A DNA stretch of 64,000 nt from a virus. Shown here in pieces: positions 10,528 through 38,543 of this stretch. How positions within the stretch are numbered: the first letter of the stretch is position 1; the number at the start of each line of letters is the position of its first letter. The translations under genes were made by a program, and so were the position numbers. The stretch lies in IMG/VR virus record IMGVR_UViG_3300041964_000068, positions 1-64,000 of that record; one strand, written 5' to 3'. A model generated the notes under the pieces. It saw only the letters and a list, made by a program, of their open reading frames with translations. It did not search any database and was not told the DNA's origin.

Positions 10528-10737
10528 CTATTCTTCTAGCGGCTGATTGTCGTCAAGCTCTCTCATACGGGAGTTCGTCTCTGCTTGTTTAAGAATCAAA
10601 TCGCAGCGCTCAACTTCCTGCTCAATTACTGTGAAGTATCCAGGTTTGGGCTGCACCGCAATCAACCTGCCCGCAATTGCAATTGAGTTCAGACTTGATC
10701 TAATGTCGCTAATAGCTTGCTCGGTAAGAACTATCAC
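10528..10737 (-). CDS. Hypothetical protein
   Basis: Last gene of the minus-strand operon. Confidence 0.45.
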   Translation of the reverse strand: MIVLTEQAISDIRSSLNSIAIAGRLIAVQPKPGYFTVIEQEVERCDLILKQAETNSRMRELDDNQPLEE

Positions 10738-10746
10738 GTTATTCCC

Positions 10747-10950
10747 CTAATCCCAAAAGATCAAGCCGCTGCGAATACTCTCTACTCTAGCGAAAGTCTG
10801 CTGAGCTTTTTCTACTTTCTCGTAAGTAGCTGAACCGAACTGATAGAAGCTCCAGCTTTGCAGGCCAACGCAAATAATCACGTAGGTATAACCCAGTCTT
10901 TTCAGAGTTTTAATCGGGTTCATTTTGCTTTTCCTCGCCATAGGAAACAA
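10747..10950 (-). CDS. Small single-TM membrane protein
   Basis: Basic N-terminus followed by a hydrophobic helix. Confidence 0.5.
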   Translation of the reverse strand: MFPMARKSKMNPIKTLKRLGYTYVIICVGLQSWSFYQFGSATYEKVEKAQQTFARVESIRSGLIFWD

Positions 10951-11125
10951 TCACAATAGCGGTCGTCGCCAACACAGAAAACAAGCTACCCGCTGCCCCG
11001 CCGCCAGCAGCAAATCGATCGCGCTGATCGGGTGAAGCGCTAACCGCTGCCGCCAAGAAACAGGAAAAAGCCGTTGTCAAGCTGAGGCAGCATCCAGCCC
11101 CTAATATCAATCGCAAACTGTTCAC
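10910..11125 (-). CDS. Small two-TM membrane protein
   Basis: Two hydrophobic helices. Confidence 0.5.
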   Translation of the reverse strand: MNSLRLILGAGCCLSLTTAFSCFLAAAVSASPDQRDRFAAGGGAAGSLFSVLATTAIVIVSYGEEKQNEPD

Positions 11126-11381
11126 AGCAATTCTCCTTGAGTGTGCGGGGTGGGAGCCGGAGCCGTGCGCCAGAATCCCACACCGAGAAACAAAACGCCG
11201 CCAACATCACAGACCAAAACATCACAAGAATCGGATCTCCTAATGTGCGTGATTGGCGTCGAGCGCGTTGGGCGTGACGATCGGCTAGCGTGTAGTACAG
11301 ACAGAGCGCATCCGGATCATTCGCACCTCGATAGTGTGATTCACCGTTCGCAGTAATCTTGATTTCAACTTCAGGCGGCAT
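11040..11381 (-). CDS. Single-TM membrane protein
   Basis: Likely start MPPEVEIK; TM segment ILVMFWSVMLAAFCFSVW. Confidence 0.5.
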   Translation of the reverse strand: MPPEVEIKITANGESHYRGANDPDALCLYYTLADRHAQRARRQSRTLGDPILVMFWSVMLAAFCFSVWDSGARLRLPPRTLKENCCEQFAIDIRGWMLPQLDNGFFLFLGGSG

Positions 11382-13027
11382 TAGATAGCCCTCCGGTCTT
11401 TTCCTGCCAGCCCCGCCGCAGGAGGTTGTAATATTCGGGCGTGTTGCGGGAGTCAGCCTCTTTAGGCTCCTCCAGGACGCCATACTGCCAGTTGCCCTCG
11501 TGATGGGCGCACTCAGGGTGAGCGCGATGAGAGTGGTGGAGACGACAGAGGCCGAACAGATCGCGTCCCGGCACTGGGACGCGGGTAATCAGCGTGTCGC
11601 CAATCATGTAGTGAGCATGATGAGCCTGGTATGCAGGTTCCCCGCATCCGGGGTAGCAGCACAGCCCGCCCGTCGCCGCCAGGGTGAAGCTTGAGATGCT
11701 GTTCCACGACACAGGCGAGCAGTCGTAGCGATAAGCGAACTCGTCGCGCTCCCTGTCCATTTCGACCGCTACCGCATCGATCGTTTGGTGTAGCTCAGAT
11801 GTGCTGCTGTTCGCCGCCGATCGAGTGATTTCAGGTTGATGGTCGGGATAGCGCGGCAATGACACCAAACGCCACTTCCCGCGCAGGTTTGTCAATGCCA
11901 CAACGACATCAGGATCTTGATTGGACATCTCCCATTGCTGGAACTGGAGCGCGAGAGATCTACGAACTTCGGGGTTCTTGACAACAGCGTGTGCGCCTCT
12001 CAACGCCGAGTGCATTGCCTCAAGCCTGTCGCCTCGTGCTAGGACGATAATACTGATACTTTCTTGTAAGCCTTTATTGATATCGAGGTCTTGCACGAAG
12101 GCGGTATGGGCTGTAATCCAATCGCAGGTTAGGCGGCTTCTACCTTTGGTAATCCGCAGCTTGGTTCCGGTTGAAACCATCTGCTTGTACTTGGTTCCGG
12201 CTTGTTCGTCGTGAATTTCTGTCGCAATTAGCGAGTTGTTGTACTCGTCGTTAATTGTGATTAACGGGATTTTCCCTGTACGGGAATCCATCGCCTTGGT
12301 AATGCCCTCCATGCGGCGATAGTACTCTTCAGCGTTGCTGGGGTCGCCGGAGTGCAGATAGTCAAGCGAGGATTTTTCCAGGCCGCAGTAGGTAGAAAGC
12401 AAATTACCGTTCTCGTCGCGGTCTTCCTTGCCGTTATGCACCGCGAAATCAACCGCACCCTTCGTTATGTTGTCAGTCTTAACGATGCAGGCACGGATGA
12501 AATTACTCTTACCTGTCCCGCCCGGAGCCGCCAAGAGAATCGTGCGGCAGTTTTGGCGATCGACAGAATTGAGGGCAACCTGTTCGGCTAAGTCCTCAAC
12601 CGGGAATGAGATCGGCGCGAACGGATCGAGAACAGCGGTAGCGCCCTGTCGTGATGTTCCGTCAGCAACCGCCTGTACCGCATCTGCTGAGCGCAGGTAG
12701 GCGGGAGGAGTAGGCGCAAGCTGATTGATCCATTCTTGTTCCTCAGCCGCTCGCACGTAGCCCATGAGCGCGACTTCTTTGTCGTCTGATATGGCCTTGT
12801 AGTAGAGATATTCTGATTCCTGCTCATCCAGCTTTGAAGAAAGTGACAAGGCAGCGAGGGAAACCGCCGGAGCCGCAAAAGCACTGAGCGCCTTCGCCCA
12901 CCGGGGATAAACCCCACAGTAGGGGACAAACCACAGCCCCGCCGCCAGCGCCACGACAACAAGGGTTCCCTGGCGCTGGCTGGATAGTTCTACTCGACGT
13001 TGGGCAAGTTCTTCGAGATCAAGCATT
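11371..13027 (-). CDS. Membrane-anchored FtsK/HerA-like ATPase with C-terminal HNH-like domain
   Basis: Two N-terminal TM helices; Walker A APGGTGKS; Walker B LITINDEY; KGRSRLTCDWITAH (Arg-finger/ATQ-like); C-terminal CCYPGC...AHHAHY...LFGLCRLHH. Confidence 0.75.
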
Positions 13028-13297
13028 GCCGACGCTCCACAGTCCCGACAAGACAAACAAGGCTAGAAGGATCGCGCTGCCGACATGGACAACTTCGATA
13101 TCCAGCGCTAACCACTCGGCGGTCTTCTCGTCAAGCAGGAATCCGAAAATTCCCAAAGCCAAGATAACCGCCAGTGTCAGCACGAGAGCTAGCCCTCGCA
13201 GTTCAGGCGAAGTCTTGAGGAGCAATCCGAATAGGTTGCCGATCGTTCCTGCCACGAGGCCGATAGATGATGCCCGAAGAAACTTACCCGTTCTCAT
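13019..13297 (-). CDS. Three-TM membrane protein
   Basis: Highly hydrophobic 92 aa ORF. Confidence 0.65.
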   Translation of the reverse strand: MRTGKFLRASSIGLVAGTIGNLFGLLLKTSPELRGLALVLTLAVILALGIFGFLLDEKTAEWLALDIEVVHVGSAILLALFVLSGLWSVGNA

Positions 13298-13307
13298 AAA
13301 TCACACC

Positions 13308-13790
13308 CTATGCTCTGCGTAGCTGACGAAATGTGTTGGCGAATTCTCGCGAAGTGGTGACGAACGTCTCGGCATGGCTGCTTGCCGCGCCTAGCCGCTG
13401 CATTGTTCTGTGGTCTTTCAGGCCATCTTTGACCAGGGTTTCGCCGTACTTGCGGTTCTCGGTTTCCATCTCGCGATTCGTTTTTACAGCGATCGTCTGA
13501 GTTTTCTTGAAAGCTGCGAACAGCTTGGCGCGATCTTGGAGAATGCTCTGAGTCGAGTCAAGCGCCTTGATGCCGTTCTCAACGCCTATCTTGGTTTCGT
13601 GTGCGATGGCTTCTAGTCGCCCCGCTGCTGCCGCGTCGTACAAGGCAGGTTCAGCCAGAACAGAATTGATCGTGGCCTGCTGGAAATCCCAAGCTTCCGT
13701 AAAACCGGGATTACCGTGTCCCAGCATTCCTCGGTTTTGATTGGCGAGGCTATCAACGCCACGACCGCCCCACGCTCTCATAATTGACAT
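13308..13790 (-). CDS. Hypothetical helical protein
   Basis: Likely start MSIMRAW with RBS (AGGAG). Confidence 0.6.
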   Translation of the reverse strand: MSIMRAWGGRGVDSLANQNRGMLGHGNPGFTEAWDFQQATINSVLAEPALYDAAAAGRLEAIAHETKIGVENGIKALDSTQSILQDRAKLFAAFKKTQTIAVKTNREMETENRKYGETLVKDGLKDHRTMQRLGAASSHAETFVTTSREFANTFRQLRRA

Positions 13791-14178
13791 GATTTTGCTC
13801 CTGTTGAATAGATTCAGAAATTCCCGTAACCAAACTTGCGAAGACCGACACACCCAGCACCACAACACCCGCCCGCACCGCCAAACCCTCCCATGTGATC
13901 GGAATCACCAATTCGCGGGGCAAGTTTTTAACCAGGGAGAAAATCACCTTCTCTCCCTCCACCCGCATCGTCAGCAGCGGATTTGCGGGAATGCCCGCCC
14001 GCCCTAACATCTCGACGGTCTTGAGGGAGATACGCTGAGGCAGGCTTCGCCATTGTTCCGTCAGGGTGCTGGCGGAGGTTTCGGCAACATGATCGCTCAT
14101 ACTTGCGACCTCGTTCAGCGCTTGCTCGCCCTGCCGGAGGATTGAATCGTAAACCTGCGCTTCAGCTTCTCCCGACAT
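13753..14178 (-). CDS. Hypothetical protein with C-terminal TM helix
   Basis: ORF in operon. Confidence 0.6.
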   Translation of the reverse strand: MSGEAEAQVYDSILRQGEQALNEVASMSDHVAETSASTLTEQWRSLPQRISLKTVEMLGRAGIPANPLLTMRVEGEKVIFSLVKNLPRELVIPITWEGLAVRAGVVVLGVSVFASLVTGISESIQQEQNHVNYESVGRSWR

Positions 14179-14182
14179 AGCC

Positions 14183-14740
14183 CTATCCCTCTACAACGAC
14201 ACCCATACCCGTCAATGCACCTTGAAACTCGACAAGCTTCTCGTCCCAAGCTTGTTTTGCGGCGGCGGCGACACCGCTCGGCTGCGGCTGGCTGGCCTGC
14301 TGTTGTCTCGCCACTTCTTCCCAGAGGCGAGAAGAGAAAGTTTTGTTGTACTGCACGAGCGTATTCTTCAAGGAGCTTCGTACATCCTCGCCAGCCCGGA
14401 TGTACTCAACCACCTCAGCGGTTGATTGATCTTGGAGATCGAAGAAGACAGCTTTAGCCGTCGCCACCCCTGAACTCGCTTGCCCTTGCTCGACAGGCGG
14501 AGCGGCAGGCGCGGTGATATCAGCTTTCTCGGAAGTCGCGAGGTTAGCCTTCTGACTTTTTGTCAGCGATCCACCGCGCTTGGAACGAGCGGGAGCGTTT
14601 TGAGCCTTGAAATGCTCGACCAACAGATCGATCGTGTCTTTCGTGATTTCGCTGAGGTCAACGCCTGCACTTCTGATTTCTTGTTCGTTGGCTGTGACGT
14701 CCTGCTCTCGCAGGTGGTCTTGAATTTGCTTGATGTTCAT
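14183..14740 (-). CDS. Hypothetical coiled-coil protein
   Basis: ORF coupled by ATGA overlap. Confidence 0.65.
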   Translation of the reverse strand: MNIKQIQDHLREQDVTANEQEIRSAGVDLSEITKDTIDLLVEHFKAQNAPARSKRGGSLTKSQKANLATSEKADITAPAAPPVEQGQASSGVATAKAVFFDLQDQSTAEVVEYIRAGEDVRSSLKNTLVQYNKTFSSRLWEEVARQQQASQPQPSGVAAAAKQAWDEKLVEFQGALTGMGVVVEG

Positions 14741-15273
14741 GCGGATTGCACCTGTCTGAATAGATTGCGACTTTTGGCGCGGGCGCGACCATTCTCAATC
14801 TGTCGTGCCCTGATTTGAAGGTAGTGCCGCAGCAGGGCTGTAACCTCGCTGCCAACGAACCGATCGCTACGGCTGTAACGTCCGGCTCCAAGCTGCTTCT
14901 GCACCCACGCCTTCACTGTGTTTTCTGCGGGGCGATACCCCGTTCGGCTTTCGATTACATGGGGTAACTCCTTCCCGGTACAGGAGAACGATTCGGGCAG
15001 GGTAGCTGAGGACATTGGGACAAAACCGGGGAGGAACTTCAGCGGATCGTTTCCGTGTCGCCGCAAAAAGACCTTGACAGCGAGCGGGGTTGCTTTTTGG
15101 CGCTTTCGTCGCAACGCGGCACAAGCGCAGAGTGCAATCCACTGATCCTGATCGCAGTTGTGAGCATAACGATCGATGCCGACCGCTATCCGCCACTGCT
15201 TCCAGGTTTCGTTGCAGATCGTCCCGCCGGGAACAATCGCCTTCAAGTCCTCCCTGATTTCTCGCAGTTTCAT
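14737..15273 (-). CDS. Basic, putative DNA-binding protein; first gene of the ATPase operon
   Basis: Likely start MKLREIRE; Arg/Lys-rich; HTH-like YRPAENTVKAWVQK. Confidence 0.55.
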   Translation of the reverse strand: MKLREIREDLKAIVPGGTICNETWKQWRIAVGIDRYAHNCDQDQWIALCACAALRRKRQKATPLAVKVFLRRHGNDPLKFLPGFVPMSSATLPESFSCTGKELPHVIESRTGYRPAENTVKAWVQKQLGAGRYSRSDRFVGSEVTALLRHYLQIRARQIENGRARAKSRNLFRQVQSA

Positions 15274-15353
15274 CAGCCCCACCCTTAAACCAACTTCAAT
15301 GTAACTTACATCTAAATTAGTTCTACCACGCAAAACAGCAGATCGCAACAAAC

Positions 15354-15462
15354 TGCGAAAATGTTCTAGTCGAAAATACGAAAAACGTTGCAGTCTCTAG
15401 AACACAGGCTCGCAACTTCTAGAAAAGCTGCGAAAAAATGTTCTAGGCGAAAAGCTAGAACA
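15354..15462. promoter_or_regulatory. Repeated operator-like sites in the divergent control region
   Basis: TGTTCTAG at 15362 and 15439, CTAGAACA at 15397 and 15455; GCGAAA(A)nTGTTCTAG duplicated. Confidence 0.6.
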
Positions 15463-15550: not shown

Positions 15551-15958
15551 ATGGCGAAACAAATGCTTTTCTCTCCCTCTCCGGGAGAACGGCGACTTAT
15601 CTCCCTGCTGGCGAAAGGCTGGCAGCGATCGGAGGCGGACATCTGCCTTGACGCCTTTCGCCGGGGATTTAAGCCAGTCGCAGAAGATTTCGAGCTTTTC
15701 TGCAAGCTCGATCAGGTTTCGCCTGCCCTGTATGATTCGCTTGCCCAGGCTATTGCCCTGAACTGGGACGCCTTGACAGGGAGCCGCATTTCGCCGGAAA
15801 GATTAATCGCGCTCAAATCAGGCGAAACCCCAACAGAGCTAGAGCAGGTAAGGCTGGCACTCGCCCTGAACTTACCCGAAAGCGCGATCGAAAAGTTAGT
15901 CGCACCCGAAACCCATGACACTACCCTTGCTACAACTCCCTCAGCTACTTCCGAGTAA
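15551..15958 (+). CDS. Putative XRE-like HTH regulator
   Basis: ISPERLIALKSGETPTELEQVRLALALNLPESAIEKL. Confidence 0.55.
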   Translation: MAKQMLFSPSPGERRLISLLAKGWQRSEADICLDAFRRGFKPVAEDFELFCKLDQVSPALYDSLAQAIALNWDALTGSRISPERLIALKSGETPTELEQVRLALALNLPESAIEKLVAPETHDTTLATTPSATSE

Positions 15959-16640
15959 GTGGCGAGCGGTTCCACAGGCCAACGCCATTCGCTTGATTTC
16001 TCCCAGCCGCGACGAAGCCGTGCGCTTTTACGAAGGCTCGAAGAATCAGCTAAAAGCTGCCGCCGATCGCATTCCCGCCAATATTGAAATTTGGGCAGAT
16101 ACCAGCAATCGCGCGATTCGGGTGATCCGTGCCTCGCAATCACCGCCGTCACAGCCGGAAGAGTCCGCGCCCGCTCAGCCTGTCGTCAACAGCTACGCAC
16201 CGAGCGTCATTCGCCCGGATGCAGGCTATGAAGCGGTGATGGATTTTATCGCCGGGAAAAGACAGGAAGGGCTAATCTGCACGGTCACGAGCATGAACAC
16301 TGACAGGTGCTTGCAGGTGAATGACCTTCAGGTGATCGAACGGGGCGGCGGCTGGACGGTTGAGGATTGGGTTGGCTTGAATTTTCTGCACTTGTGGCGG
16401 GATTCGTTTAAGCCGGGGAACCGCAACTACTACGGCGAGCTAATCCAAACGCTGCTCAGACGTGAACCCTTCGACTTCCTCTACCGCATCCGGCGACCGA
16501 GCGGAGCGATGGGGGAGTATCTGAGCCGTTATTTTTTGGTGGAGAGGTTCGGCGGCGTTCCGGTTCGTATCGCTGTTTCCAGCCCCGCTGACGTGCGAAT
16601 CGTGGAAGACGCACCCAACGGTAGCGAGGTTGTCACATAA
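15915..16640 (+). CDS. Protein with C-terminal PAS-like domain
   Basis: TVTSMNTDRCLQVN...EDWVGLNFLHLW...FLYRIRRPSGAMGEYLSRYFLV. Confidence 0.55.
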   Translation: MTLPLLQLPQLLPSKWRAVPQANAIRLISPSRDEAVRFYEGSKNQLKAAADRIPANIEIWADTSNRAIRVIRASQSPPSQPEESAPAQPVVNSYAPSVIRPDAGYEAVMDFIAGKRQEGLICTVTSMNTDRCLQVNDLQVIERGGGWTVEDWVGLNFLHLWRDSFKPGNRNYYGELIQTLLRREPFDFLYRIRRPSGAMGEYLSRYFLVERFGGVPVRIAVSSPADVRIVEDAPNGSEVVT

Positions 16641-37307: not shown

Positions 37308-38543
37308 TTATTTCTTCGGGGCGAACTTAGCTCTAAAATCCTTTCCAAACGACGCTAGCCGTTGTTTCGTCTCTTCCGACACGACACGCTCCGCAGGCGG
37401 CTCAGCGGGCGATTCTGACGGGGTAGGGGCGATGGCTTGAGCGGCGAGGCGTTGTTGAGTCTCAGCGGCCTTACGCTTAAGCTCAAGACCTCTATCCCAA
37501 CGAAGTTCGATCGCTCTCCAGTCGTGCTTATTGATGTACCCGCCAATGCTGTTTTTCGCGTCACCTTCTTCGTGGGGAAGGTTGTACTTCTTCAGATGCT
37601 CAATCTGAGCTTTCACTACCCAAGGATCAAAGTCGTTTCGCTTCTGACCCACCCAAACTTGACCGTACCCCGCCGCTACCAAGTCTGGGTAAGGATGACC
37701 GGGAGTTGATGTTCTCGTCTTAAACCTGTCCTCGAATCGAGCCGCAGAACTGTAGCGAGAATCGTAACTTGTAGTCGGAGTGACTTCGTTTTTCGCCGCC
37801 GCGCCCTTTTGATCACCACAGACAGCCTTTGAACTTGACACGAGAGGAGGTGTTTGTGTGTTGTCGGGTGGGGGAGTATCTTTCGCATTCGGTTCCGGTG
37901 GCTGTTGTTCTGGCTGTTCCAGTTCGGTTGGAGAAAACGGCTGTTCGCTTCTTTCTTTCTTTATTGGAGAACCTTCAGAATGGAGAACCTTAAGAGGGAG
38001 TACCTTTGGGTTATCCCCGTTAACCCCCCCGGTTATCCCCGTTAACCCCCCCCGGTTATCCCCGTTAACCGTCTCAGTGTCGATCGGAGGGTTATCCCCG
38101 TTAACCCCCCCGGTTATCCCCGTTAACCGCTTCTTCCGTTCCTTGCCAGGATTGCCTTTACGAACGTTGCAGTTTTCGAGCGGAGTTTCGGGTTTATTCC
38201 AGCCTGACTCGGTTAGGTGATAGATGTTGACGTGATTCGTGCCGTCTTCTCTCTTGCGAGTTTCTTTGTAAATCAGCCCAAAAGCGATTAGCTCATTAAT
38301 CGCTGCAATCGCCTTGGCCTTGAGCGAAGCCGCAGAGGAGTTCGGGTAGGAACCTCTGAAGCACTGCTCGCCAATGCTGGCGTAGCTGGGGAAAGCGGTG
38401 TTGTTTGTTCCGGCTCTCCTCGCCAGATGCCCGTAGACCCGGAACGCTTCGATCGTCAAATTCAGATCGTCAATATCTGACTTGAGGAAAATGGGAACCT
38501 TGCGCGATTCCTGAAGGCGATCGTTCCCGTTTTGCTCTGACAT
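37308..38543 (-). CDS. Phage replication initiator (N-terminal wHTH, lambda O-like organisation)
   Basis: AFRVYGHLARRA...AFPSYASIGE...AINELIAFGLI...NIYHL; internal iterons; upstream of dnaB. Confidence 0.8.
   Translation of the reverse strand: MSEQNGNDRLQESRKVPIFLKSDIDDLNLTIEAFRVYGHLARRAGTNNTAFPSYASIGEQCFRGSYPNSSAASLKAKAIAAINELIAFGLIYKETRKREDGTNHVNIYHLTESGWNKPETPLENCNVRKGNPGKERKKRLTGITGGVNGDNPPIDTETVNGDNRGGLTGITGGVNGDNPKVLPLKVLHSEGSPIKKERSEQPFSPTELEQPEQQPPEPNAKDTPPPDNTQTPPLVSSSKAVCGDQKGAAAKNEVTPTTSYDSRYSSAARFEDRFKTRTSTPGHPYPDLVAAGYGQVWVGQKRNDFDPWVVKAQIEHLKKYNLPHEEGDAKNSIGGYINKHDWRAIELRWDRGLELKRKAAETQQRLAAQAIAPTPSESPAEPPAERVVSEETKQRLASFGKDFRAKFAPKK
38009..38128. repeat. Five 17-bp iterons (putative replication origin)
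   Basis: GGTTATCCCCGTTAACC at 38009, 38031, 38054, 38090, 38112. Confidence 0.85.

Follow-up and report, generated by a model that had tools for sequence, protein, structure and literature searches.

A phage cassette built around a divergent membrane-anchored FtsK-type ATPase and an HNH-like partner: a possible DNA transfer module of filamentous cyanobacteria

A run of nine or ten genes on the minus strand of a 64,000-nucleotide stretch of phage DNA (hereafter the window; positions 1 to 64,000 of the IMG/VR virus record IMGVR_UViG_3300041964_000068), numbered here g1 to g10 in the order of transcription, encodes a membrane FtsK-type translocase module in which both the ATPase family, represented by g6 and deeply divergent, and the family of its HNH-like partner are new. 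In the literature searched, no paper was found on the ATPase family, on the HNH-like partner or on Leptolyngbya phage Lbo402-yong5, which carries the same cassette. The ATPase has a membrane anchor and the FtsK-HerA fold, its HNH-like partner is either fused to it or split off as a separate protein, the order of the genes is conserved in other phages, and a repeat array private to the cassette lies upstream of g1. An original prediction made from the letters of the window had seen in the cassette a machine that spreads phage DNA from cell to cell across the septa of a filamentous cyanobacterium. By analogy, and at a confidence well below even, we favor a reading of this kind, in which the cassette would be a membrane-embedded DNA-translocation machine, carried as a self-contained phage accessory module, that moves DNA to the neighboring cell of the filament. 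A role in defense or exclusion is nearly as likely as cell-to-cell DNA spread.

The ATPase and its family

The g6 gene (11371..13056, minus strand), defined from the open reading frame (ORF), a family profile, a structural model and structure comparison, encodes a membrane-anchored FtsK-superfamily ATPase fused to an HNH-like domain. The protein has 561 amino acids (aa) when translated from TTG at 13056 and 551 aa in its database form, which starts at ATG 13026 and to which the residue numbers given here refer. According to hydrophobicity and the model, its N-terminus forms a transmembrane (TM) hairpin (residues 19-64; 12835..12972, minus strand) that is followed by a long helix reaching to about residue 103. 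The hydrophobicity scan gave one TM segment at a threshold of 1.6 and a second one (residues 44-64) at 1.5, the model has two long helices here, and most family members have one or two N-terminal TM segments. The ATPase core (residues 139-400; 11827..12612, minus strand), delimited by the model, the structure match and conservation, contains Walker A (GTGKS), Walker B (INDE) and a TKGRS motif. The P-loop motifs that had been read from the window (APGGTGKS, INDEY and GRS..WITAH) are all present in the 561-aa ORF, as APGGTGKS, ITINDEY and TKGRS...WITAH, and residues G172, K173, D260 and E261 show little or no variation across 85-100 sequences. TKGRS, which is TQGRS in the family consensus, presumably sits at the place of the arginine-finger motif TQRPS of FtsK.

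An AlphaFold model based on seven sequences had a confidence score (pLDDT) of 61, too poor to separate FtsK from RecA, and was replaced by a rerun with 100 sequences. In the latter model, a two-helix hairpin continues into a long helix (residues 4-103); a disordered linker leads to a core (residues 139-400) with pLDDT mostly above 95, and the C-terminus is poorly modeled at low confidence. An exhaustive structure comparison gave as matches TcpA (Z 15.9), the DndH C-domain (15.1), EccC (14.5) and FtsK (14.2), followed by VirB4 (13.1), HerA (13.0), the packaging ATPase B204 of Sulfolobus turreted icosahedral virus (STIV; 12.2) and TrwB (11.9); domains of EccC and EssC matched with Z 14.5, 14.4 and 13.1. 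The top 20 matches all belong to the FtsK-HerA superfamily (Z 11.5-15.9), whereas RecA/Rad51 matched at about 10.9 or lower. The modeled fold assigns the g6 ATPase to the FtsK-HerA superfamily, with membrane-anchored translocases as the nearest solved structures. To our knowledge, every characterized FtsK-family ATPase with N-terminal TM helices (FtsK, SpoIIIE, TraB, TcpA, EssC/EccC) moves a macromolecule at or across a membrane.

Close relatives of g6 number only seven among 5.8 billion clustered proteins, and a profile search of 1.84 billion representatives identified 139 clusters. The window protein itself is too divergent to match PF01580 (FtsK_SpoIIIE) in Pfam. The protein P0040 from a Trichocoleus metagenome-assembled genome (MAG), which is 27% identical to g6 over its whole length (E 3e-38) and has the same three-part architecture, does pass PF01580 (score 30.5, cut-off 24), which 11 of 85 family members match. 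By sequence, g6 would thus join the FtsK/SpoIIIE family through one transitive step only. The label of a membrane FtsK/HerA ATPase, which the original prediction had attached to g6, agrees with the TM hairpin, the FtsK-HerA fold and the PF01580 match of P0040.

Sequence searches of the PDB with the single g6 protein and with a profile of its close subset returned nothing significant and reached no FtsK. A broad family profile had its best PDB match in EccC (E 3e-18), which was lost when bona fide FtsK-like members were left out of the profile. Pfam detected in g6 neither FtsK_alpha nor gamma, the winged helix-turn-helix (wHTH) domain that reads KOPS, and neither T4SS-DNA_transf nor TrwB_AAD_bind. 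The relatives P0108 and P0122 do have FtsK_alpha, and through the motor domain they match SspH models of PADLOC (E about 1e-29 to 1e-31). Another family member, P0036 (917 aa), contains a LAGLIDADG_3 domain (residues 432-499, E 6.5e-14) ahead of the part matched by the ATPase profile, which may be an intein or a homing endonuclease.

The HNH-like partner

The last 110 residues of g6 carry the pattern CCYPGC..HH..(24)..C..HH...HH and form an HNH-like Zn domain (residues 440-551; 11374..11709, minus strand), which was delimited by alignment with stand-alone proteins of the related phage loci L001 and L002. In three related phages this domain is encoded by a separate gene slightly downstream of the ATPase gene (L001, 11139-11504; L002, 7585-8025; Lbo402-yong5, locus L019, 8103-8435). 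The protein of Lbo402-yong5 is annotated as 'NinG' and matches the HNH-like family profile with E 8e-31. Two bona fide FtsK alpha+beta proteins, both from Trichocoleus, likewise end in this domain. Since the domain is fused to the motor in the Trichocoleus FtsK proteins and is encoded by a separate downstream gene in L001, L002 and Lbo402-yong5, the link between motor and HNH-like domain is conserved, and this association is solid.

Over 18 members of the HNH-like family the residues C, HH, G, C, H and H are invariant, and the stand-alone forms have the classical layout CxxC...HH...CxxCH...H. The Pfam HNH family (PF01844) matched the L001 protein below threshold (E 0.012, 16.2 bits against a cut-off of 21.4); further weak links led to a PF01844-bearing protein (E 1e-4), the HNH domain of IscB (0.026) and a nicking endonuclease (0.007). 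The C-terminal Zn domain of the original prediction is therefore a real motif, found as a separate gene in relatives, and its sequence suggests a nuclease.

The cassette in other phages

The order of the cassette recurs in four distinct related loci, namely L001 with the near-alike L010 and L012, L002, L011, and Lbo402-yong5. The common order is a g1-like gene, a g2-like gene, a membrane protein, a coiled-coil protein, a small polytopic membrane protein, the ATPase and the HNH-like protein. The gene of the small polytopic membrane protein abuts or just precedes the ATPase gene, and the two overlap in the window and in L001. Homology between the window and the other loci is detectable by BLAST for g1, the N-terminus of g2, the ATPase and the HNH-like domain; for the coiled-coil protein it is confined to L001 and L002, and the remaining cassette proteins are positional analogs. 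The cassette lies at different genome positions in different phages, like a movable accessory block.

The whole cassette is present in Leptolyngbya phage Lbo402-yong5 (OR994056.1; L019, 3097-8435), a cultured Leptolyngbya boryana phage whose complete genome measures 49.4 kb. Its ATPase is annotated as 'DNA translocase coupling protein', and genes annotated as large terminase and portal adjoin the cassette; in a further genome, G002, Terminase_6C lies beside the cassette. In L002 (6096-7515) the ATPase gene is split at the TSH motif into two overlapping frames of 348 and 138 aa, which could reflect a frameshift, a sequencing error or a broken gene.

The cassette is rarely met in sequence collections. 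The window protein matched none of 50,697 phage records, among which only Lbo402-yong5 surfaced when P0040 was used as the query, and IMG/VR gave no match when scanned with P0025 or P0040 as single proteins. Nor did a relative turn up in two pattern scans of 185,579 species genomes, although their patterns were narrow and give no proof of absence.

Plasmid relatives and host range

The ATPase of a plasmid of Oscillatoria nigro-viridis PCC 7112 has homologs on 43 plasmids, 31 of them from Nostoc, four from Leptolyngbya, two each from Oscillatoria, Aulosira and Tolypothrix, and one each from Microchaete and Calothrix. The window family is distantly but significantly related to this plasmid ATPase (close-subset profile, 38 bits, E 4e-8 at Z = 1e6), and P0097 from Sphaerospermopsis, which has this kind of architecture, was matched by the original profile with E 6e-11 against 1.8 billion proteins. 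Two Nostoc plasmids were examined (L017, 5298-10944; L018, 4899-10740). Both have a co-oriented, contiguous operon that starts with ParM, continues with four or five small ORFs, a coiled-coil protein of 240 aa and a small membrane protein of 180 aa, and ends with an ATPase of 610-650 aa; in one of the two it adjoins the plasmid replication gene. Coiled-coil protein, small polytopic membrane protein and ATPase thus follow one another as they do in the phage cassette. In such small plasmids the operon looks like a core DNA-handling function rather than cargo. ParM is absent from the phage versions examined (window, L001, L002 and L019).

Some of the plasmid ATPases are named 'type IV secretory system conjugative DNA transfer family protein' by the Prokaryotic Genome Annotation Pipeline (PGAP), and no NCBIfam model matches them. 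Longer family members of about 700 aa, such as P0097, have a conserved region of their own in the N-terminal 260-300 residues. On 24 plasmids of Nostoc, Tolypothrix and Microchaete (for example the Nostoc plasmid NC_003267.1, 62053-63687) this region precedes the ATPase domain and carries no annotation beyond 'ATP-binding protein'.

Named relatives of the g6 ATPase come from Trichocoleus (three clusters), Allocoleopsis, Sphaerospermopsis and one unclassified cyanobacterial MAG. A single chromosomal or plasmid copy is close to the window protein, and it is a relic: on the megaplasmid pA of Kovacikia minuta (L004, 12417-16270), just downstream of an IS21-type IstA/IstB pair, the ATPase gene is split by a short internal duplication. 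Filamentous cyanobacteria account for all 44 plasmids with a relative, for the phage host and for every named genus (about 12, among them Trichocoleus, Allocoleopsis, Sphaerospermopsis, Kovacikia, Oscillatoria/Microcoleus, Nostoc, Leptolyngbya, Aulosira, Tolypothrix, Microchaete and Calothrix). As a control we used the replication protein gene CyRepA1 of the same plasmids, which was found on 247 plasmids, including plasmids of Synechococcus (25), Acaryochloris (20), Synechocystis (7) and Geminocystis (7). The control is common in unicellular genera too. The filamentous-only host range of the named records is regarded as suggestive and short of proof. The original prediction had named such a restriction as a check, and every named relative does come from a filamentous cyanobacterium, its plasmid or its phage.

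A possible DNA transfer machine

A DNA-translocation complex in the membrane is proposed because TM-bearing FtsK-family ATPases move macromolecules at membranes and because the partners of g6 point to DNA. That DNA is the substrate is suggested by the conserved nuclease-like partner together with the helix-turn-helix (HTH)-like proteins at the head of the operon; for the direction of transport and for everything that concerns septa, what follows is what we infer. Through its two-helix anchor, g6 would assemble in the cytoplasmic membrane as a ring ATPase of the FtsK type, and g3, g5, g7 and g9 would form the membrane part of this machine. The g1 and g2 proteins may deliver the DNA of the element to the motor, and the HNH-like domain may nick or cut it, giving the motor an end. 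The motor would then push double-stranded DNA into the neighboring cell of the filament, by analogy with TraB and Spd of Streptomyces plasmids. A divergently encoded protein resembling the ribbon-helix-helix (RHH) type would keep the operon shut through CTAGAACA sites, in a kil/kor-like arrangement. In its most specific form, this reading describes a TraB/Spd-like, relaxase-free machine of filamentous cyanobacteria, common to tailed phages and small plasmids, that passes double-stranded DNA from cell to cell, so that the element spreads along the filament without leaving it and the HNH-like nuclease supplies the DNA end; this form is somewhat more doubtful than the general one.

TraB/Spd systems have been described only for actinomycetes (PMC4447253, PMC2440964). 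With those of Streptomyces plasmids and actinomycete integrative and conjugative elements (pSVH1, pSAM2; PMC4447253, PMC2440964) the cassette has in common a membrane FtsK-like ATPase, an operon with several small membrane proteins, a divergent repressor, the lack of a relaxase and of a type IV secretion system (T4SS), and a location on mobile elements of multicellular filamentous hosts. The small membrane proteins stand at places corresponding to Spd, a likeness by position to which Pfam and PHROGs add no family. However, TraB ends in a wHTH domain that reads 8-bp clt repeats whereas g6 ends in the HNH-like Zn domain, the repressor of the window cassette is RHH-like and not of the GntR type, the hosts belong to another phylum, and the carrier here is a tailed phage. 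Strict membership in the TraB/clt group was ruled out, as there is neither a wHTH tail nor a repeat array after the gene.

Among conjugation proteins, TcpA of Clostridium perfringens pCW3 (PDB 6o1x/6o1w) is the closest in structure (Z 15.9 over 232 residues, root-mean-square deviation 5.5 A). It is a coupling protein with two N-terminal TM helices followed by one nucleotide-binding domain, but it is only about 12% identical to g6 and works with the full Tcp locus, whose VirB4-like and VirB6-like proteins, wall hydrolase and relaxase are all lacking here. Coupling proteins of the VirD4/TrwB/TraG type likewise agree with g6 in architecture and fold (TrwB, Z 11.9), whereas their relaxase and VirB4 partners are absent here. 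Neither VirB4 nor the relaxase family PF03432 was found in the three phage records searched (the window record and two related ones), in line with the original prediction that relaxase and T4SS genes are missing; a classical conjugation system was ruled out on these grounds.

Other systems combine a motor of this superfamily with a nuclease. In the 'transjugation' module of a Thermus thermophilus integrative and conjugative element, the ATPase TdtA and the nuclease NurA donate DNA (PMC5365140). TdtA resembles g6 as a membrane-associated hexameric ATPase of the FtsK-HerA type that stands beside a nuclease on a mobile element and is needed for export of donor DNA (PMC5365140); it differs in being HerA-like, without TM helices, paired with NurA and a restriction enzyme, and without a set of small membrane proteins. 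DndH and SspH of phosphorothioate-dependent defense (PDB 7es4) have an FtsK-like motor fold (Z 15.1) acting with nuclease activity, but these proteins are large and soluble, lack a membrane anchor and act with DndFG or SspFG. The FtsK-like proteins of Cluster J mycobacteriophages (Omega gp203, PMC3706429) are likewise motors of tailed phages encoded beside normal packaging genes, with unknown function; they have no membrane domain and keep a gamma-like domain, whereas g6 keeps the anchor and has the HNH-like domain in place of gamma. The type VII ATPases EssC and EccC contain two or three tandem ATPase domains and an FHA/DUF domain, in contrast to the single ATPase domain of g6.

Four points favor transfer: the core-like appearance of the plasmid relatives, the filamentous-only hosts, TcpA as the top structural match, and the lack of a relaxase, as in Streptomyces. 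Several observations weigh on the other side. The window cassette lacks the C-terminal wHTH domain and the clt repeats of TraB, with no array of repeats behind the pump gene. The defense motor DndH-C is structurally as close as TcpA, within 1 Z unit, so that the expected grouping holds with respect to TcpA, EccC and FtsK, and against terminases, with a near-tie to a defense motor. Pairing of an ATPase with an HNH nuclease is typical of defense systems, and a tailed phage can pass between cells in any case. The HNH assignment lies below threshold, in a region of low model confidence; the window protein has no match to a curated family in Pfam, PHROGs, PADLOC or NCBIfam; and no wall-cutting enzyme is encoded in the operon. 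Between phage and plasmid cassettes the accessory proteins show no detectable similarity, the ATPase being the exception. The host pattern is drawn from few named records and about 12 non-independent genera, and the sequencing runs containing the stretch are biocrust and soil metagenome DNA, with no RNA run listed. The proposal of cell-to-cell DNA spread thus retains its anatomy and was refuted by neither of the two computational checks, structural grouping and host range; as the TraB-type wHTH domain and clt array are absent, its mechanism is an analogy.

The strongest competitor, doubtful on its own, is superinfection exclusion or defense, in which the membrane motor-nuclease would load on incoming phage or plasmid DNA and cut it, protecting the host cell and the element. 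An ATPase paired with an HNH nuclease is a common defense layout, DndH-C (Z 15.1) is a near-tie for the best structural match, and the FtsK-type relatives P0108 and P0122 match SspH models of PADLOC through the motor domain. The varied genome positions of the cassette in phages are reminiscent of morons, its proteins are rare and fast-evolving (seven close proteins among 5.8 billion), and it is wired apart from the genome-wide operator network, all of which would suit a defense gene set. No PADLOC model matches the window proteins, though, and ten genes including two conserved soluble, possibly DNA-binding proteins are many for an exclusion system. On the plasmids examined the relatives adjoin ParM without a break and in the same orientation, in one case beside a replication gene, which looks like core plasmid biology; defense gives no reason for the filamentous-only hosts, and the cassette is carried by a phage, Lbo402-yong5. 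Clearly less likely than defense is a role in the intracellular handling of the element's own DNA, as a membrane tether, in FtsK-like clearing of the septum, in resolution of concatemers by the HNH-like domain, or in a second stage of genome uptake. The plasmid relatives share their operon with the actin-like partition protein ParM, the phage cassette lies among early, replication and recombination genes (ERF, exonuclease-like gene, DnaB), and because the cells of filamentous hosts stay joined after division, DNA caught in septa poses a real problem for them; phage FtsK-like proteins of unknown role are also known, for example in Cluster J mycobacteriophages (PMC3706429). A tether would however not need several dedicated small membrane proteins, the polarity-reading gamma domain of FtsK is missing, and the phage versions examined have no ParM.

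The two other readings are improbable. Export of protein by a type VII-like motor of the EssC/EccC kind, with the small helical proteins g4 and g10 as its substrates, is unlikely. EccC and EssC rank high in the structure comparison, the broad family profile has its best PDB match in EccC, and the operon encodes small helical and single-pass membrane proteins; but that profile match vanishes without the bona fide FtsK-like members, g6 has a single ATPase domain, Pfam finds no FHA domain or WXG100-type family in the operon, and DNA is suggested as the substrate by the conserved HNH-like partner and by the HTH-like g1. Least probable of all is a DNA-packaging motor of the FtsK-HerA type, as in membrane-containing viruses, with the HNH-like domain cutting concatemers. 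The structural match to the STIV packaging ATPase B204 (Z 12.2), the lack of a recognized terminase in this incomplete record and the fact that HNH proteins often assist terminases would fit it. The window record, however, is about 66% complete and ends after the tail genes, and plasmids, which package nothing, carry relatives. This reading was rejected because ordinary large terminases lie beside the cassette in the complete genome of Lbo402-yong5, which also has an annotated portal, and in G002 (Terminase_6C).

Whichever reading holds, the ATPases form an uncharacterized protein family of about 140 clusters at 50% identity that is invisible to Pfam, PHROGs and PADLOC and whose tested members are unmatched in NCBIfam. 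If DNA does move between cells, the cassette would be the first TraB-like system for transfer of double-stranded DNA outside Actinobacteria, it would provide the first evidence of DNA passing between the cells of a cyanobacterial filament, and it would give a virus a new means of spreading within a multicellular host. If it serves defense instead, it would constitute a new class, a membrane-anchored FtsK motor with a nuclease. The cultured phage Lbo402-yong5 is a ready experimental system, and its host can be genetically manipulated; therefore the question is directly testable.

The small proteins and the layout of the operon

The cassette extends from 15351 to 10528 as a minus-strand run of nine or ten tightly packed head-to-tail ORFs, which agrees with the operon of about ten genes in the original prediction. 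Judging from the ORF coordinates, most junctions are overlaps of 4-14 nucleotides (nt) or gaps of at most 10 nt, for example overlaps of 4 nt between g1 and g2, 8 nt between g5 and g6 (from ATG 13026) and 11 nt between g6 and g7. Exceptions are the g3/g4 junction, where the overlap is about 29-38 nt with the ATGs at 13781 and 13790 and 116 nt with GTG 13868, and the g7/g8 junction with an overlap of 86 nt, g8 being a doubtful gene. None of the operon proteins has a meaningful match in Pfam, PHROGs or PADLOC, the PADLOC scan covering seven window proteins, and the three proteins scanned against NCBIfam (the ATPase, g1 and g2) have no match there. Absence of a family from the PADLOC library does not by itself exclude it from defense.

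Two conserved soluble proteins stand at the head of the operon. The g1 gene (14737..15351, minus strand), with a likely start at ATG 15273 (178 aa), may encode a DNA adaptor with a tandem HTH of the MerR/excisionase type, as judged from its homologs and from weak leads, the Atlas leads to MerR/HTH_17 all being below 0.9. Its homologs head the cassette in L002 (48% identity), L001 (27%) and L011, the first cassette gene of Lbo402-yong5 is g1-like by eye, and only two clusters of g1 relatives were found among 5.8 billion proteins. The g2 protein (14183..14740, minus strand) has at its N-terminus, according to alignments, a conserved module of about 50 aa, and its middle is of low complexity; the N-terminus aligns with the second cassette gene of L001, L002, L010 and L011. 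A likeness to SAP/HeH-type DNA binders was noticed by eye, and a profile search of the PDB gave nothing significant for it.

The hydrophobicity scan detected, besides the N-terminus of g6, one membrane segment in g3, two or three in g5, one in g7 and two in g8, while g9 fell under the threshold and has a hydrophobic stretch by eye. Of the five small membrane proteins originally proposed, four or five are thus seen, g8 being the doubtful one. The g3 protein (13753..14178, minus strand) is a single-pass membrane protein with its TM segment near residues 98-124, and a membrane protein stands at the same position in L001, L002, L011 and L019. The g4 gene (13308..13868, minus strand; start uncertain, GTG 13868, ATG 13790 or ATG 13781) encodes a helical or coiled-coil protein, as judged from its position and a motif seen by eye. 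Its positional counterparts in L001 and L002 are mutually homologous (E 7e-9), and by eye g4 and the L001 counterpart have an NRKY motif in common; g4 has no family match in Pfam or PHROGs.

The g5 protein (13019..13297, minus strand) has 92 aa with two or three TM helices, and its gene overlaps the start of the ATPase gene. Every locus examined, plasmids included, encodes such a small polytopic membrane protein directly upstream of the ATPase. A complex prediction for g5 and the N-terminal 110 residues of the ATPase scored 0.00, which gives no verdict either way.

For the short genes around and after g6, the most informative relative is L009, a metagenome contig of 3.3 kb with an ATPase 57% identical to g6. 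It has g5, g6, g7, g9 and g10 in the same order, and therefore these short ORFs are regarded as real genes. The g7 gene (11040..11381, minus strand), whose start overlaps the g6 stop, encodes a single-pass membrane protein supported by the TM scan and by the motif PEVEIKI...YRG.NDP.AL conserved in L009. The g9 gene (10747..10950, minus strand) encodes a small hydrophobic protein with a homologous ORF in L009 (motif LCVGLQ.WSFYQ). The final gene, g10 (10528..10737, minus strand), encodes a helical protein of 69 aa, also with a homologous ORF in L009 and with no family match in Pfam or PHROGs. The possible two-TM protein g8 (10910..11125, minus strand; 71 aa) was proposed from its two TM segments, and no counterpart was seen in L009.

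The regulatory region and the phage

Upstream of g1 and in the opposite orientation lies a gene for a small regulator (15551..15958, plus strand), probably of the RHH type and possibly the cassette repressor, which was identified by comparison with L002 and L001. It is 37% identical (E 3e-14) to the gene in the matching divergent position of L002, and its counterpart in L001 has a weak RHH_5 match. The region between g1 and the regulator contains an operator-like array (15362..15462) composed of four copies of TGTTCTAG/CTAGAACA as two inverted pairs and of a repeated CATTTT(T)CGCAG; a direct repeat of 19 nt, 95% identical, was also found in this region. All four copies of TGTTCTAG/CTAGAACA in the 64-kb window fall within 15362-15462, consistent with the operator set of its own that the original prediction had ascribed to the cassette, and their arrangement suggests that they are operators. 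Similar TAGAA and TTTTGCG motifs were seen by eye in the intergenic region of L002. A conserved divergent repressor with a private array of sites fits tight control of a harmful membrane machine. The gene after the regulator (15915-16640) has a weak PAS_3 match (E 0.009) and is not conserved with the cassette in L002.

The source record, an IMG/VR virus of 78.5 kb, is estimated to be 66% complete. The window derives from biocrust metagenomes. The phage, from a soil-crust cyanobacterium, is siphovirus-like and temperate; the window contains genes for a tape measure, tail-tip proteins, an M23 peptidase, a serine integrase, a DnaB helicase, an ERF recombinase and a TET/JBP dioxygenase. The cassette shares its half of the window with early, replication and recombination genes (ERF, an exonuclease-like gene and DnaB). 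The remaining 14.5 kb of the record (64001-78514; L016) contain a major tail protein, a second tape-measure-like protein (610 aa) and an endolysin-like gene, and no capsid or terminase was recognized among the ten largest ORFs of this part. The record breaks off after the tail genes, and the head module probably lies beyond the end of the contig.

Only two clustered arrays of 8-mers were detected in the window, the fourfold CTAGAACA array upstream of g1 and iterons at about 38010. The latter comprise five copies of a motif of about 17-19 bp (GGTTATCCCCGTTAACC-like; 38009-38260) within or beside a gene for an HTH_36 replication initiator (37308-38543), and this cluster probably represents the iterons of the phage origin.

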